The notes below the pieces were generated by a model. That model did no database searches. It saw only the letters and a list, made by a program, of their open reading frames with translations, and was not told the origin of the DNA. The position numbers and the translations under genes are program-made. 64,000 bases of DNA from Neodothiora populina (lineage: Eukaryota), in contig NW_027191414.1 in assembly GCF_041146345.1 (NCBI RefSeq), positions 124,001 to 188,000 on the forward strand, given 5' to 3'. Shown piece after piece: positions 8,646 through 18,200 of the stretch. Every line of letters begins with the position of its first letter. Positions within the stretch are counted from its first letter, which is position 1.

Positions 8646-9386
8646 TCATAAGCTGCTCTCCTCAGTCAGCTCCTCGTCGCCTGGCCTGGCTCGTCCCTCG
8701 AGATCCAGTCCAAATTTCTGCTCCAAGGCCTTGACGTTTGCGGCCCACTTGCTAAGGACAGGGTGCGCAGCGGCGACTTCGCGAAAAGTGACTTCGCCAC
8801 CCTCTTCCCTCTCGCCCTCGACTTCGAAAGTCCAAACACCATCAGGACCAAACCATCGTCGTCCGAACAACTCAGTCAAGCCCATTTCTCCCCTGGCACG
8901 AACGAACTCCTCTCGGACAGAACCCTTGACTTCATCACTTGCAGAAGCATCTGAATTGACCGCTCGCACAACACCTTCAAGAGCACCAAGTAGGTATCCT
9001 GATCTGAGTCCAATAACCGCGCCTAGCGAAAAGCCTTCGTCGAAGCCAGACTGGACATGCACGGTTTTACTGCTCGCCACGCCATCACGATAGCCGGCCG
9101 TCACGTGCTGGCTGCGCAGACGGGGCACGTCCGAGTGCTCGCCGATGGCATTTCTCGTCTGTGGCGCGGCGGCAAGCGTCGCATCTAAAGAGTCAAAATC
9201 GGCAGAGTCTATATCCTCGTTTTCGAAATTGCCGATATGAACTGCGGCGGACGCCAAAGGTGAGTTGGGCGCTGAACCGAAGACATCGTCTAGTGCATCT
9301 GTCGTTGGTTCGAAATGGGCTTCTTCTTCTTGGTCGCCTGAGGAGGTCATTGTGTGTGGAGAGTAGCCTGGTACCTCGCGGAGCAT
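8646..9386 (-). CDS. YAE1: Yae1 family protein (CIA adaptor for Rli1 Fe-S maturation)
   Basis: Deca-GX3 motif GYRDGVASSKTVHVQSGFDEGFSLGAVIGLRSGYLLGALEG; first ATG at 9386. Confidence 0.88.
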   Translation of the reverse strand: MLREVPGYSPHTMTSSGDQEEEAHFEPTTDALDDVFGSAPNSPLASAAVHIGNFENEDIDSADFDSLDATLAAAPQTRNAIGEHSDVPRLRSQHVTAGYRDGVASSKTVHVQSGFDEGFSLGAVIGLRSGYLLGALEGVVRAVNSDASASDEVKGSVREEFVRARGEMGLTELFGRRWFGPDGVWTFEVEGEREEGGEVTFREVAAAHPVLSKWAANVKALEQKFGLDLEGRARPGDEELTEESSL

Positions 9387-9865
9387 AGCTGGAGTTTCAC
9401 ACAGATGCTGCTGAATCACAATTTGTGTTCTAACATTAATTCGCCTGTCATAAAGGACAGTATACGTTTTGTTATAGTCAACAATTCAAGACGTTCAAGA
9501 AATTTGACGGTCGGGCTTGAAAAGTCTTGGCTTAGTCAGCTTTGCTTGCAACCAACTTCATCAATTCACTGTCTCAATCATACAGCAGCATGTCACAAAG
9601 ATGGGTCAATGACTATAATGACTCGAGACTAGGAGGCGCGTAATTACCGAGTAAAGTTTCTCGTTAACTATAAGAGCTATCTGAGGACACACTTAATGAA
9701 CGCAAAGTGCATTGCTTCACATATCCCTAGCTCCACAATATCTCGGCAATCTCACCATAGCTTTAGTGCGGTCCCGACGATCCGCAACTCCATTGTGCAT
9801 ATTGCTAATACCAAGGCACGGCGGCCTACTTCCCATCCAGCTCTTAGGCTAGCTTTGTCGTTCGC

Positions 9866-11911
9866 CTAGATAGCGTCACGCCCGTTGTGGACAAGTGAAA
9901 CGCCGACGGCATCTGGGATGCCGGCCCAGGTGAAGAGCTGCTGCTGGTTGATGAGGAATTTGTCGACAAAGGCCCTGGAGCGAGCAGCTCCATAAGTCAG
10001 TGTACGTCTCTCAGTGCGCAGATGTTCCATCAGTACGGAGACGAACCCGGTGTCACCGCCGTAACAGTCAGCAGCATCATCTGCCAGCTTCCTAACGTAG
10101 ACGTTTCGGACCAGAGACCAATCAGTAATCTCCGGACGCAGACCTTCGATGTACTTGCGTAAGGTAGACACCAACAGGTAGAAAGCCTTGACCCAGTCTG
10201 TGCCCGTACGGCCTCCGTAGGCGGCTGGGAAAGAGACGAAACAGAGCTTCAGTAGCATCTTGAGAGCGTATTCATCATCGAAGTCTTGATTGACTGAAGC
10301 AATGAAAGTTCTGATGTCAATCATTGGCTGCAAGTGCTCAGGCCAGCGGTCGCCTGGCAACAAGTCACAGGGAAGGTCGGCAACACGCAGAGCATGAATG
10401 ACGATGGATCTCATGGTGTCCTCGGTCTCCTCTGGCGAGCCACTCAGTGCAATGTCGCTGATGCTACTGGCGAGTTCCTCCTGGATCTCGAGATACACCT
10501 TCTTGACAAGGGCGCTGTACCCTGGAGTGCCATTTTGAACATTCTTCTCGCGCTCACAGCGAGGACAGCCACAGAGGAAGTTGTACGTGCCATGGAGGTC
10601 ACGGGCGCGCCAATTGACTTCGTAAGTGGGCTCGCTGTAAGCGATGAAGAGTTCTTCCCCATTTGCAATGGCCCTGGTGGTTCTGAAGCGAGCTTGAGAT
10701 CCTTCGAAGAAGAACATGATATTCGGATCACAAGAATGGTTGATCATGGACACAAAGGGGTCGACACTAATTCCCGAACCAGGGGAGATTGGGTGGCGTA
10801 TGGTGATTGCGTTGATTTCGATCTGGACATATTAGCACCTGGCCAACTGGACTGTCGGGAATCATGATATACCTTTGCGTAAAGCTCGAACATTTCCATC
10901 ACACTCATGTCGGGAAGTTCTCCCATACCGCCCGTCATGGCCCTGGTGTCCCAAAAGGTATGGTTGGTGTCAATCAAGCCTCCTACAAGCGAGCGCTTGT
11001 GGTGCGAGATCAGGTTACCCAGAGCCTTGCGCTCTTCGTCGGTGAAGGTGCCTTGCGCAAGCTTATGGAGAATGCGGGAGAAGATCATATCTACGGCAAG
11101 TTCACCGCCCCTGAGCTTCATACCGCCTCTCTTGCGGGCTCGGTCAATGTGTTTACACTCTTGGCTATGGTGGTCAGCCCATGCAGCGATTTGACATTCC
11201 TATGCGTCAGGTTAGTGCACGAAACTAAATCAGGAGGTGAAGCAAGAAGTGACAAACCTTGCTGCAATACTTGACACACTGGCAGCGCGCGCAGCGGTGC
11301 AGAACAGGTGGTGGATCAGGGGCCATACCGGCTGGACGAATATCAAGGTCTGGTGCCAGAAAGCAGTTGTCGCACACCATGTCAGGGTCCGACGCCGCTG
11401 TGACCAATGGTTTGATGACGCGAAAGACTTCAAAACCAGGTGGCAGTTCTTTGAGCGTGAATACACCGAAGCCAGCATTCTCGATTGGTGAAAGACGAAT
11501 GTCAAGTGGGAAGGGGCTATCAACAGTGGTCAAGAGATATGTGTGCAGGCTGCCACACATGTTAGGTGAGTCTCTGATCTTGAAGTGAGTACTCTCATGC
11601 GATGGTTCGTCAGCGATTGCTGCATCATTAGTCTGCTCATGCTCGTCTGTAGCTTCGTCGTCCTCATCATCTTCATCGTCTTCCTCATCGACCGACACTT
11701 GGCTTTCTGAACCTGCATCATAAGCTTCATCGTCTGCTGGTGGTGTCGAAAGGCCAGCAGGACTGTCCAACGACGATGACGATCCGACCAGGGTCGCGTC
11801 ATCCGCATAAGCTATGTAATTAGCTACATTGGGGTCAATGTCGTAGATGACCCTCGCGAAAGCGGTGTTGAAGTAGTCGTCGCCATTGACGGCCTCACCT
11901 TCTGACTCCAT
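9866..11911 (-). CDS. SET and MYND domain (SMYD-type) lysine methyltransferase; exons 11911-11258, 11199-10873, 10822-9866
   Basis: SET-N AGFGVFT, MYND CDNC..CARCQCVKYCSK|ECQIAAWADHHSQEC, SET MINHSCDPN, GEELFIAY, post-SET FLCGCPRC; acidic N-terminus. An upstream in-frame ATG at 12178 gives an implausible extension. Confidence 0.9.
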
Positions 11912-12604
11912 AATGTCGCAAGGTAGATCACAAAGACACGCAAATGAAGAAGGAGCGTGTGTCGCTGAGGGGGGCGACAACGTCAAGAAGAAGAATGCTG
12001 GAATGCAAAAGCAGCACACGAAGTGTTTGAAAGACACACGAGAAGAGAGATCCCTTAACAACAGAAAAAGTGTGAAGGAACAGATCAAGTAAATGCAAAG
12101 GAGTAAGTGTGGGAAATCGATAATTCCGATTATGTGTGCGCCGTGAAGTGGACCACAGCGCCCCTTCCTTTTCAGCATTCACTTCAGGACCATCCCAGAG
12201 GTTCAAGCGATCCCAAAGAAGCTCCTCTCTGTGCCTACCTCCGACGCTAGCGCCATACCTAAGAAGGCTCGTCTGGAACCTCACGTTGGCCTACAGCTAT
12301 CCATCCAGTGCCGGAGATCTTATGGCATCAGTCTATACTACACTGACTGTCCATGATCGTGCCACCTCGTGACAGACCTCCTAGAGGTATCGAAGGAGTC
12401 GTGATGAGTTCGGAGGGGCGTGCACCGACCATCGATGACGTCCGTGCCCTTCGTACCTACACTTGAGGTGTAGAGAAGGGAAAGCGCGTCAGGCAGCAAG
12501 GCAGCAGCGCATTGCTCTTTGGTGGCAGCGCATGCTTTGAGGTCATGATAGACCTGAGGTATAATCCGTCGCGAAAATGGTGGGATCTTGTCATGCGACA
12601 TATC

Positions 12605-13678
12605 TCAGTAGTCGCTGAAAAGTCTTGTCGCCAGTCCGGGTCGGTTTGCTCCGTCGTCTGTTCTTCCAATTCCACGCACCTCCCTGCCTTCTTTTGCAAT
12701 CCACACACCAGCACTTGTGCCGAGTCTGCTCGCTCCGGCCCGAAGCATCTCTTGAGCATCTTCCAGAGTCCGGATTCCTCCACTGGCTTTGACTCTCATT
12801 CGTTTGCCACCTCTTTTCTCTAGTCTTTCACAGACGGCCTTCATCAGACGTACATTGTCGATTGTTGCACCAGCACCCATGAATCCGGTACTTGTCTGGA
12901 CATAATCGAATCGAGCATAGTCCGCTATCACGCAGGCGGCGATGATATCTTGTCGTGAAAGCTGCGAGATCTCCAGAATCAAGCTTAGGATGGGCGCTTC
13001 TGGCGCGGCTGCTGCACGAATTGTGGCCAGTTCATTGTAGACGGCATCATATTGGCCTTGCTGCAATCGAGGCCAATTGAGAGCTATGTTCAACTCCTGG
13101 GCGCCTGCTATCAGGACACGGCGAGTTTCTCTACATGCATTGGACATGTCAGAGATGCGGGTCCCAGCAGATATGTCTCTCCTTTAAGTCCACAAACATA
13201 TGCTATGTTACATACCGCACCTTGTCCGTTATCTCATGCGTGCCTTCGGGGAAGCCTACCACGCCCGTGACGTGTATCCCACTGCCCTTGAGGTCGGCAG
13301 CTGCCTGCGCCACATGACATGGTCGAACACAGACTGTCTACAAGAGCAACACCAGAACAAATCAGCATTGGCCGAAAATTACAGCAACGCTTGCATGCAG
13401 TGCAGTTCCGACAGCATTTATTTCCGAAGCGTCGTCCCCAGCTTCCAACGGGCAGATAAAATCAGGCTTACCGCGAAACCCAAAACCCTTGCTTCAGCGC
13501 ACAGCGCATCCACCTGCTGCGACGTCGCATCGAGTTTGAGAAGAGTATGATCAATCGCAGCAGCGAGGGCTGCACTACCAGCGAGAGGACTCGACCGCGG
13601 CCGTTCGGTGATGGAGACCTCGGCCGCGAATCCGGCTATGATGGACGACCACTCTTCGTCGGTGTAGCGAGTCGTCAT
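12605..13678 (-). CDS. deoC: Deoxyribose-phosphate aldolase (DeoC/DERA) homologue with substituted catalytic residues; exons 13678-13472, 13337-13216, 13130-12605
   Basis: IDHTLLK, TVCVRP, VVGFPEG, TSTGF, VKASGGIRT, GASRLGTSAG; both introns canonical and frame-preserving. Confidence 0.92.
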
Positions 13679-14716
13679 GGCTCTGCTCTTCTTCCTCTTT
13701 CACCTCGTGATGAAGGCGCACTGGAGTCTGCGGAGTGTTGTATGGGTCGCATTCTTCGGTCTTTCACGCCGAGAAGAGCCGCGCGACATGGGAGAGAGAT
13801 ATCGTGTGCCTGGAGCCCAGCACCGCCGCCGCCGCCGTCGTCTACTAGCGGGGGAAGCACGGGGAGTTGGAACCTGCTCCTCATTGTGGAGATGCTGCTA
13901 TCTACAGACACGGCAAAGTGGCTCCGTGCAGGATTGTCTAGTGGTAAATCGCCGATAAGACGTGATTTGTCGACTGATTTGGGCTCGTCGAAATATATTT
14001 TCTCGGGTGTCAGTCATGATTAAGGTAAGGGCTGGAAACAATCGGCGCAGTCATGAATGTCTACAGTGTAGAGGGGTATGTAAAATGGATATTTTCTTCC
14101 TGCAGCTACGAGTCACAATCCGAACGCATGCACAGCAAAGGTCACAGTGTCACGGAGTCCCAGGTCCACAAGAGCACCATTGAGATTTTATGAGATCGAT
14201 TCAACAGCTATAAGGAGAGCAAGCAAGGGTAGGCTTCCTCAATAGCAATCATAAGATCCTCACTCCTCAATGTATCATGCATCAGAAGCTCGCTTTGATA
14301 TGCCATCTCTCCTGCACCAGTGCATTTGTACACAAACAGCAAGCAGACAAGAAACTCCGAAAAGGAGAAAAACAGATGTGCAAGATAAAAGGAAATAAGA
14401 AAGTAGCGGCCAGATTTTGATCGTGGCGGATATCCGGAACTCCCTTATTTTTGGATCGATGTCGTGATATTGCTGCATAGACTTTTTTGGTTGGCGAGGG
14501 GGAGTTCCCTCTTCTATCCATCCACATGGCATGACTATCCGATCGGAATAGATCAAACCCGAGCTCCTCTGCTGCGCTTGAAAATATCGTATGCCATGAC
14601 TTTGAGCGACGCATCCCCTCCGCCGCCGCCGTGACGGGGAGACACGCCACCATCTTTCCCCCGAGTAACCATCCCAATACGAAATCCGAATTGACTTGAT
14701 TTTACTCGCGTAACAT

Positions 14717-15287
14717 CTACTTTCTCCTGAAAGAGCAGCCCTCAGTAAGACGGGCCTTGCCACCGGTGGGCTGGCAGAGGACCTGAGAGCAGCCGGCGCA
14801 GACGACGACGGTTTGTGCGTGGGAGAAGACGGTGGTGATGGTGAAGCATCCGGGGCACTTGACGTCCATGAAGAAAGAGCGGGGGCCGGGGACAAGGGTC
14901 TGTATTTGGTTTTTCATTAATTCAACTGATTCTAGAGGTCGCATGGCGACTGCTTCCCCACGGAAAGGAAGCAAAGAGAGAAACAGATAAACGCACCTTA
15001 AGCTTGTGCTTGCGGGCCTCAGCGGCGGGGCTGGGGTTGAGGAGGTCGACTGCGAGAACCTGCACATGATCACGTCAGTCATGTTTCCAATTTTTGACAT
15101 GATAACGGCAGCCCTGGATGCGCTGGAGATGGTGGCAGAGCGAATTGTCGCTGACGGATGAAATTGCCGTCGTTGTCGATGTCGTGTGCCTCCTCTTCCT
15201 CGTCGTGTCCGACAAGTTTTCGCCACCTCGAAGCCTTCATCTTCAGCGCATCGCCAGGACCACGCATTTCGGCAAAAATCGTACCAT
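14717..15287 (-). CDS. RPS27: 40S ribosomal protein eS27; exons 15287-15285 (ATG only), 15059-14997, 14899-14717
   Basis: Spliced product [40 protein letters not shown]...CAGC...[12 protein letters not shown]. Confidence 0.97.
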
Positions 15288-18200
15288 CTTGTCGGTTTGA
15301 CTGTTGTCTGTGTTTGAATTGTTTTACTTGTCGGGATTGGATTGATGGTTGGAAGATGGTGCTGTTAATGAGCTTTGCCGGTCGACGATTTCTTCAAAGA
15401 GAGGAGCGGACGAGGTGCAAAGCTCGAAAAGAACCTCTCTGTGGGTGTCTGTGCTGAACGCCAAGCCCCCGCTAGTCTTGCTTTTAGCGATTGCTTTTTT
15501 GTGTCGTCTGCTACTCGCCACTTCTGACTTGTCTATACAGCCAGCACGTTCCAACAAGATCTTTTCTTTTCTTCTATTGTCATTCTGACGTGCAGCAGCA
15601 TGAGGCACTTGAAATGCGCCCTGGCGTGGCGATGATTATTATCCAGTAGTGGACTCCCAGATAGGATAGTGTCAAGACTCTGCGCAGACATGTTCATAAT
15701 AGCACGACCCCGCTTGTCTTGGCACTGGTCTCATCACTGTTGACTGACTTCCTAAGACGTTGGATGTCTGTTCTTTCTTCATTCCATGAGCATATGATGA
15801 TGCACACGATTCGATAACAATAGGTCATACTGTAATGCAATTTGCTTGTTGTTTATACAAGGCCCTATTCGTATCACTGCCTGTAATCATGGTGATATGA
15901 GACCTGTTCAGCTGGCTCGATTCTCCTTCATCTCATGGCTATACACAAATACGATCTGACATGACGAGCACAAGAGTCAAGGAAGTCTGTATCAGCCAAA
16001 TGATAAATATGAGCTTCCCTTATATCGATACCTCTTTCTACCCTTTGCTTATGGGGCTATTGTGCAGGAAGAAGATTATAAGCTGTCTGATAATCCGCTG
16101 CCTTATCTGATTGATCCAGTAAAGCGGTATCAGTATCTACACGTATCAGTATTGGAATGTTACCTACTTATAATCGTCTTCCAAAATCGGTCCAAATTTC
16201 ATTTATGTGACAGGGACATCAACTATATCGCGCAGCCTTGCTATGCTACTACACCCGTGGTTCAGTCTCCAGTATTACTCAATGATCATGCGATATGTAG
16301 AAGTGCTACTGTGTCACACACGCAGCTCTCAATCAAACCCTTCTTTGTGCATAATGATTCAATTGACGCCGCACTGAAGTATGCTACCTTAATACTTCTT
16401 GGATGCATGACACTGCGATCTGGACAATATGAATATGACTCACGTCGTGAACACAGCAGACCTGGTATATGCTAGCCAGAGTACCCTAGTCTTGTATCGT
16501 TGCTTCCAAGACTCATAATCCCTCATTAAGCCTATCTGATTACGTGCACCCGCAGGACTTGGATTTCTTGCGACGACAAGAAAATGATGCTCTTCGTTTT
16601 CGAGATCAATAACCACTACATGCTTCTTCTCAGTAGTGTAGACACAGATTATATTATCTTGCAGGACATGATCCCGCTCTTGACTATTTCATGGAAGAGC
16701 TGAAGGTGGGCCAGGGTCTCCCCCTGTAGGATAGAGCTTGGCAGCGAACCACTTCCTCGTCTATGATTCGGAAGCTTACCGATCTCTGAACCTATACCAT
16801 AGCATGGCCCCTCTATCTCGATAATGGTATGACGTCCCGTGGGCAACACCTGTAGCGTGGTATCCACTTCACGAAAAGACCGGGTGGTCAGCACCAAGTC
16901 AGGACGCGCCATTGCCGCGCACCTCCCCTTGGATATGCTTGGGTGGCCTTATTGAGTGGTTCTAAACTGACCCAATAGAACACGTGAGGATTGTTTCCCC
17001 TGCCCTGCAGCTCCTATATTCCCTGTGATCTGCAAAGCTTCCATCTATCTCACACCGACCATGAACAGATATCCGGACCCGGGGGATAGGCCCGCTGCTT
17101 GCTTCGTGTGTATTCGTTTATTGTTTCTTATCTTTCTTCTGCACCTGGTATCGTGAATCTGTATCGCTTTCCCGCATGCATTCCAATTAGATGAACATAA
17201 TCAACGAGATCGCCGATTGCTGCGCATTGGGGTCTTCGAGGTACATGAAGGTCTAGAAGGTTGCGTGCAAGGTTTGTTCCTTGCTTGGGAACAAGCGTTT
17301 CATGATCTGCTCGACGTGAACAAAGTCTGCATCCACTGGAAGGAAAAAGAGAAACCGCTTTTCGTCAATGTTTGACCGCAATAGCAGCTGCACTTATGCC
17401 AAAATCCTGAATAAACAATGGCGCATGTCGACGCTGGCACAACACACGTACAGCCGGCACCGGAAAGGTAGAAATAAGCGAGCTTATTTGACTCCTGTCA
17501 CTTCTTGGGACCAATAACTCGTTTTTGCAAAAAATGATCGCCGTACCTCATTCGCTGGCTTGATGGACCGCGACAGATATGGCAGGACTACTATGTTTTG
17601 GGTGTGGGATTACATTGACAATTCATTTCAACGTCCTCCACCCACAATGGCAAGAGCCGTGAGGACTAGGTTCGGCAGTTGATTCTTCGGTTGACTCGAC
17701 CAGATGGACACTGAGCATTATTCTCCTGACATGGTATCAGACTCGACTGATCCTCGATCACTCCTTCTGCGGCATATGGAAACAAAGAACGAGCTCACGA
17801 GCGGATGCAAGCAACGTGTTGTAGCACAACATTGAGATCCACATTAGCAACGCCACATGGCAAAGTACGGACTCCTGTCGTCTCGAAATCCCCATGTCCC
17901 ATCATTCATTAGATGGCGAACAAGAGGTGCAGCTTCCGCGAGATCTACCTTTTCCCCCCCAAGAGACACCTCGAACACATACATTGGATCAAATCACATA
18001 TGGGCGACAACAGAAACCCCGACGAATGATCCGTTTCTGCGCGAATTTTGCTGATTCCCTGAGACGGACCCGCGCCAAACGGTCCGCATTGTCCGTTCGG
18101 CAGACATCGTTACGTGGCTGCCATGCGGAGTCACGGTGTGCCCACGTCTTTCACGGGAGTGTACGAGACGTCTGGCGCAACCTCATGGCATCGGTATCAG

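Follow-up and report, generated by a model that had tools for sequence, protein, structure and literature searches.

The closest described systems to the locus analysed here are the active deoxyribose-phosphate aldolases (DERA; EC 4.1.2.4). In the E. coli enzyme (DeoC), the review PMC8403123 describes Lys167 as forming the Schiff base and Asp102 and Lys201 as moving protons, with Cys47 not essential and the phosphate bound by G171, G205, G236 and S238. The same three catalytic residues are named in PMC11585597, and the K167L replacement in E. coli DERA is reported in PMC8576802 to abolish Lys167-dependent activity, as shown for Michael addition.

A single fungal gene was compared with these enzymes within a stretch of 64,000 nucleotides, referred to below as the window. 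The gene, AAFC00_005696 in the NCBI annotation, belongs to Neodothiora populina, a fungus with a role in aspen canker, and occupies positions 13678-12605 of the minus strand with three exons and two GT-AG introns. Its joined exons (855 nt) translate exactly to the 284-aa protein P0004, in agreement with the intact frame and two introns proposed by a previous sequence-only reading of this DNA. The features of the gene are collected in Table 1.

Table 1. Features of AAFC00_005696 and its immediate upstream region, in window coordinates.
Feature	Position	Strand	Remarks
Exon 1	13472..13678	-	69 codons, MTTRYTDEEW start; D43 = E. coli D16 kept
Intron 1	13338..13471	-	134 nt, GTAAGC..TAG; exactly absent from X2 contig (joint 13337/13472)
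Exon 2	13216..13337	-	C72 = E. coli C47 kept; GFP motif
Intron 2	13131..13215	-	85 nt, GTATGT..TAG; absent from one X2 contig (29-letter side), present in another
Exon 3, through stop codon	12605..13130	-	All altered pocket residues lie here
Asn124 replacing catalytic Asp102	13088..13090	-	Codon AAC; alignment to E. coli DeoC
Ala126 replacing Val104	13082..13084	-	V in 424/426 other homologues covering the column
Ser159 replacing Lys137	12983..12985	-	Codon AGC; at least 2 base changes required
Ile164 replacing Thr142	12968..12970	-	Alignment to E. coli DeoC
Gln188 replacing Schiff-base Lys167	12896..12898	-	Codon CAG
KASGGIR, kept	12770..12790	-	Lys224 = K201; phosphate loop G227/G228/R230 = G204/G205/R207
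RLGTS phosphate-binding motif, kept	12713..12727	-	Matched to R234/G236/S238 by motif
C-terminal tail RPGLATRLFSDY	12608..12643	-	Low pLDDT; 11/12 residues match the consensus of 26 peers (exception T282>S)
Upstream ORF, out of frame, 25 codons	13675..13752	-	Its TGA overlaps the start ATG of AAFC00_005696

P0004 is named deoxyribose-phosphate aldolase in UniRef and scores above the cut-offs of both TIGR00126 (194.4 versus 117.3 bits) and PF01791 (40.9 versus 23.8 bits). An AlphaFold2 model, generated from a 40-sequence alignment, reached a mean pLDDT of 92.4, with low values over the last ~20 residues. When this model was searched with Foldseek, the best match was the DERA of Coccidioides immitis (3oa3; TM 0.84-0.85, 47% identity), and the rows listed were all DERAs. 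P0004 is predicted on this basis to retain a DERA-type (beta/alpha)8 barrel.

Residues of P0004 were placed on E. coli DeoC (reference taken from NC_000913.3) by profile alignment, except that the profile left RLGTS unaligned and this segment was assigned by motif. P0004 shares with the active family D16, T18, C47, K201, G204/G205/R207 and the RLGTS motif, and its phosphate site is intact, G192, G228, G247 and S249 corresponding to E. coli G171, G205, G236 and S238. The position of E. coli K172 is occupied by F193, as in at least 95% of homologues. Unlike the active family, P0004 carries the five pocket replacements of Table 1 and has no Schiff-base lysine at the canonical position. The K>Q, D>N and K>S exchanges claimed from the sequence alone were confirmed by the codons and by the alignment, which likewise upheld the claimed conservation of Cys47 and Lys201, that of RLGTS resting on the motif; the exchanges V104>A126 and T142>I164 come in addition to that trio. 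Lys137, which we take to be an active-site residue beside Asp102, is not among the catalytic residues cited from the literature.

The altered columns were inspected in 459 other homologues, a set in which some cluster members are redundant and many proteins are prokaryotic. The K167 column holds K in 451 (C 3, E 2, D 1, A 1, gap 1), the D102 column D in 416 (S 2, H 1, E 1, gap 39) and the K137 column K in 440 (R 4, G 1, T 1, gap 13). Asn, Ser and Gln, at the D102, K137 and K167 columns respectively, were found in none of the 459. Because both the Lys167 nucleophile and the Asp102 proton relay are replaced, Schiff-base aldolase catalysis would be lost in P0004. P0004 thus has the predicted fold, family score, Lys201 and phosphate site expected of EC 4.1.2.4 and lacks its Lys167 and Asp102, so that in joining an enzyme fold to replaced catalytic residues it resembles a pseudoenzyme of the DERA family.

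The accuracy of these letters was assessed with four listed runs (X1 to X4). An X1 contig covers the entire stretch and an X2 contig covers exon 3, each with 0 other letters relative to the assembly, X1 being possibly the source of that assembly and X2 deriving from the X1 sample. Both introns are exactly skipped in X2 contigs, one contig retains intron 2, and none lies inside most of intron 1. Since the genome shows one locus and X1 lacks the joint, X2, which is not on record as RNA, seems to be RNA-derived. A piece from X4, which represents another sample and another study, equals 12885-13010 with 0 differences and covers the codons of S159, I164 and Q188; it lends weak support, as only I164 has 31 letters on either side and, from a CCGG site onwards, the piece no longer resembles the locus. 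The X3 and X4 pieces (12636-12739, 12770-12888 and 12885-13010) start or stop at CCGG sites, beyond which the sequence is a different one, as happens with restriction-ligation libraries; being short and continued in this manner, they indicate neither habitat nor strain. The letter-for-letter agreement of the X1 and X2 contigs at the altered codons is in keeping with the previous view that a single sequencing error is not involved. No stops, frameshifts or broken splice sites were detected in AAFC00_005696, either in the gene model or in the X1 and X2 contigs.

Genome searches with five protein queries (exon 3, the Aureobasidium DERA, a bacterial DERA, the second fungal subtype P0373 and E. coli DeoC) returned only this locus at E<1, the search scoring best candidates only and the completeness of the assembly not being given. 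C17 was rejected as a second DERA, its match being weak (E 1.5) and without a DeoC match, and a PF01791 family search of the same genome was uninformative, as its 0 matches missed even AAFC00_005696. The canonical paralogue whose existence had been left to be checked was thus not found by any of the five queries, and this genome likely holds no active DERA copy. Pseudoenzymes commonly, although not necessarily, arise by duplication while an active copy persists; there is no sign of that origin for P0004, for which the five queries found only one locus.

RPS27 lies upstream of AAFC00_005696, and a SET/MYND-domain gene (9866-12178, minus strand) and a Yae1 gene (8646-9485, minus strand) lie downstream, the latter two with no link to the DERA finding seen. 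A metagenome scan yielded 3 loci from 112 candidate stretches, none of them close. In one of these, L002, RPS27 is likewise upstream of DERA on the same strand, and this shared arrangement indicates that AAFC00_005696 stands at an old position. Between RPS27 and the DERA gene, the segment 14200-14610 has near-identical DNA blocks in common with L002 (~530-1030), outside known coding frames and including the complementary pair GGGAACTCCC / GGGAGTTCC. These blocks look like a conserved non-coding RNA or element, and an Rfam search of 11000-16000 gave 0 matches at E up to 1. In addition to the out-of-frame upstream ORF of Table 1, a second upstream ATG (13789-13700, minus strand) is in frame with AAFC00_005696 and stopped 7 codons before its start, whereas the ATG lying 72 nt upstream of the L002 DERA is in frame and open. 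An origin of the upstream ATGs in a broken N-terminal extension was considered and rejected, since the extensions of relatives are unlike each other and unlike this region. The upstream ATG may lower translation of AAFC00_005696.

P0004 falls in a clade of live Dothideomycete orthologues (support 92/94). The orthologues of Aureobasidium pullulans (P0126; 53% identity to P0004) and P0005, P0007 and P0195 have the same ends, MTTRYT... and ...TRLFTDY; unlike P0004, they keep D102, K137 and K167. Fungal DERAs without the Schiff-base lysine nevertheless exist elsewhere, known here from gene models: five proteins of the Candelaria/Candelina/Pycnora group and two of Trypethelium and Bathelium. K167 is replaced by C, together with K137R, in Candelaria pacifica, Candelina submexicana and C. 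mexicana, by A in P0359, by D in Pycnora praestabilis and by E, together with D102S, in Trypethelium subeluteriae and Bathelium mastoideum. Like P0004, all have open frames, the MTTRYT start and the ASG and RLGT motifs; unlike P0004, they carry other replacement residues and a more eroded phosphate loop. The loops being partly eroded there and intact here, P0004 looks like the youngest case. The Asn/Ser/Gln combination itself is known from one species, with no relative found to carry it. The proteins of the Candelaria/Candelina/Pycnora lichen-fungus clade (P0220, P0357, P0358, P0359 and P0150) also have a new conserved C-terminal extension, EEGGWLETPSP...RQYF. The Trypethelium and Bathelium proteins (P0367 and P0369) contain long insertions and stand beside a live DERA of another subtype (P0373 and P0368), whereas in the Neodothiora populina genome no live second DERA was found. 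These two lysine-less proteins are 77% identical (313/404), compared with 70% (205/292) for the live pair of the same two species, which suggests that a fungal DERA lacking the lysine can be as strongly conserved as a working enzyme.

On a tree of 37 rows, hand-picked from about 460, loss of K167 required three changes of state. A single origin of the seven lysine-less rows tested was rejected (AU p 0.0025), but a joint origin of P0004 with the Trypethelium/Bathelium pair was not (AU p 0.19), the groups having been set from residues and the test made after the tree was known. K201 is lost in Pycnora and kept in six of the seven lysine-less fungal proteins counted with P0004; conversely, P0185/P0338/P0339 and P0059/P0196 retain K167 and have K201 replaced by N or L.

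We consider P0004 to be a DERA that has lost catalysis but has been retained for binding, at a probability of about 0.6. The distribution of its changes bears on this reading, although all clustering tests were post hoc, on a finding selected for exactly that pattern. Among 43 columns conserved at >=95% in 192 other sequences, P0004 differs at three, namely D102, K137 and K167, and the hypergeometric chance of this trio hitting catalytic positions is 3.2e-4 for 4 positions and 8.1e-4 for 5; against a broad 19-residue pocket set the same clustering is not significant (p 0.08). When P0004 was compared with 29 full-length Dothideomycete peers, 8 of 90 conserved columns were changed, the most of the set (peers 0-5), and three of these eight fall on 4 or 5 catalytic positions (p 0.0018-0.0044). 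The other five are T41A, A93T, H99P, V126A and P155A; H99P reverts to the residue carried by 187/265 homologues, and the excess of non-catalytic changes over Aureobasidium (5/85 versus 1/85) is not significant (p 0.21). Catalytic positions were changed in 3/5 cases and phosphate-site positions in 0/8 (Fisher p 0.035). A second Fisher test (3/5 versus 0/17, p 0.0065) was dropped, as its 17 positions omitted the changed tail column T282, which is T in 26/26 peers and S in P0004.

The main competitor of retention is early decay of a dispensable gene, in which selection has relaxed, the frame is not yet broken and only misfolding changes are purged while the protein is expressed, so that buried charged catalytic residues would drift first. 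The 8/90 count, the highest among 30 Dothideomycete sequences, would fit such a course, as would the restriction of Asn/Ser/Gln to a single species and the upstream ORF overlapping the start of the gene. Against it, the five pocket codons accumulated at least 6 base changes with frame and splice sites undamaged, and in a neutral-decay model that assumes ancestral codons and ignores indels, the joint chance of an open frame, no change in the remaining 38 columns and changes in 3 or more of 5 catalytic codons did not exceed about 1e-4 under full neutrality, whichever divergence was tried. The phosphate site and the disordered tail are also kept, though folding does not need them. Furthermore, measured from the fork that P0004 shares with three live sisters, its terminal branch is 0.40 and theirs are 0.40-0.52, in a tree with eight pocket columns dropped and with a quick tree in agreement; by branch length there is no accelerated divergence, only the mild excess of changes at conserved columns. 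RIP was rejected as the cause, since TpA/ApT is 0.50 and the substrate index 1.41 (window 0.65 and 1.25) and most changes are not C-to-T, and a dN/dS comparison with exons 1-2 of L002 was discarded owing to saturated synonymous sites (pS 0.82, pN 0.24), as was its RPS27 control, whose alignment was shifted by one codon. Retention of P0004 under selection is thereby supported indirectly, and decay appears unlikely while being the rival to be taken most seriously. The preference for retention over decay expressed in the sequence-only reading therefore holds in part: changes concentrate on catalytic positions, the frame, the splicing, the phosphate site and the tail have all been preserved, the branch is not long and lysine-less DERAs endure in several genera of other fungi, but five non-catalytic conserved positions also changed. 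The sugar-phosphate sensing, scaffolding or different chemistry suggested there would be candidate roles.

A somewhat less probable alternative is that the pocket was rebuilt for new chemistry, with Lys224 acting as a relocated Schiff-base lysine or with a non-covalent isomerase, epimerase or dehydratase reaction on a phosphorylated substrate. Lys224, Asp43 and Cys72 are still present in a pocket from which the D102-K137 pair and K167 have been removed, the D>N, K>Q and K>S exchanges are polar and modest and cluster with V104A and T142I on neighbouring strands, and K201 persists in most of the lysine-less fungal proteins counted above. The DERA barrel is moreover easily redirected in the laboratory, though still via Lys167 (PMC8576802). 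Nevertheless, the residue at K167 differs by lineage (Q, C, A, D, E), a diversity more easily reconciled with loss than with a single new mechanism, K201 is gone in Pycnora, P0185/P0338/P0339 and P0059/P0196, and there is no substrate lead. That P0004 is still a working DERA of weak activity, or that its changes are an assembly or strain artefact, seems hardly credible. Databases do call it deoxyribose-phosphate aldolase, TIGR00126 was passed and its gene is the only DERA copy found; yet the nucleophile whose replacement in K167L removes Lys167-dependent Michael addition by E. coli DERA (PMC8576802) is missing, and an artefact is contradicted by the identical X1 and X2 contigs and, weakly, by the X4 piece.

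Under the retained-pseudoenzyme reading, the single DERA orthologue, at its ancestral place beside RPS27, would have turned into a pseudoenzyme. Since Gln takes the place of the Schiff-base lysine, Asn that of the relay aspartate and Ser that of the lysine next to it, the protein should be unable to cleave deoxyribose 5-phosphate by class I aldol chemistry, by analogy with E. coli DERA. What selection would still maintain extends from the helix MTTRYTDEEW at the N-terminus through the barrel, Lys201 and the entire phosphate site to the flexible tail RPGLATRLFSDY at the C-terminus. The protein, if produced, would most likely bind a phosphorylated sugar (DR5P or glyceraldehyde 3-phosphate) without turnover, a partner protein through its conserved ends, or both. 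Given an intact, spliced gene with replaced catalytic residues and the separate losses of this lysine in other fungal lineages, P0004 probably also serves a purpose other than catalysis, and this role would predate the loss in this fungal DERA subtype, becoming the sole role once cleavage was dispensable. The highest number of conserved-column changes among the peers, the T282S exchange and the upstream ATG count against this reading, and the eroded phosphate loops of the other lysine-less copies argue against one common sugar-phosphate ligand, which is accordingly not assured.

A role of DERA beyond nucleoside breakdown has a precedent, as the human protein is reported to have a part in the response to stress (Salleron et al. 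2014). Human DERA is an active enzyme of another subtype than P0004; it is located in stress granules, and we draw no stress-granule link for the fungal protein. More tentatively, and with the odds somewhat against it, the MTTRYT...TRLFTDY fungal DERA subtype as a whole may have an undescribed second function, as a sugar-phosphate or aldehyde sensor or as an adaptor acting through its conserved ends, that outweighs aldol cleavage and that separate losses of the Schiff-base lysine have uncovered on at least two and probably three occasions, here without any active copy.

Neither AAFC00_005696 nor any inactive fungal DERA was found to be described in open-licence PMC and bioRxiv main texts. Pseudoenzymes are already known as a class; a single-copy housekeeping enzyme such as DERA turned pseudoenzyme in place, without an active paralogue, would separate a hidden non-catalytic role from catalysis. 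The finding also flags database entries that are labelled active DERA despite a missing nucleophile. Finally, the repeated losses in fungi would provide natural catalysis-free versions with live sisters, making the other roles of DERA testable.
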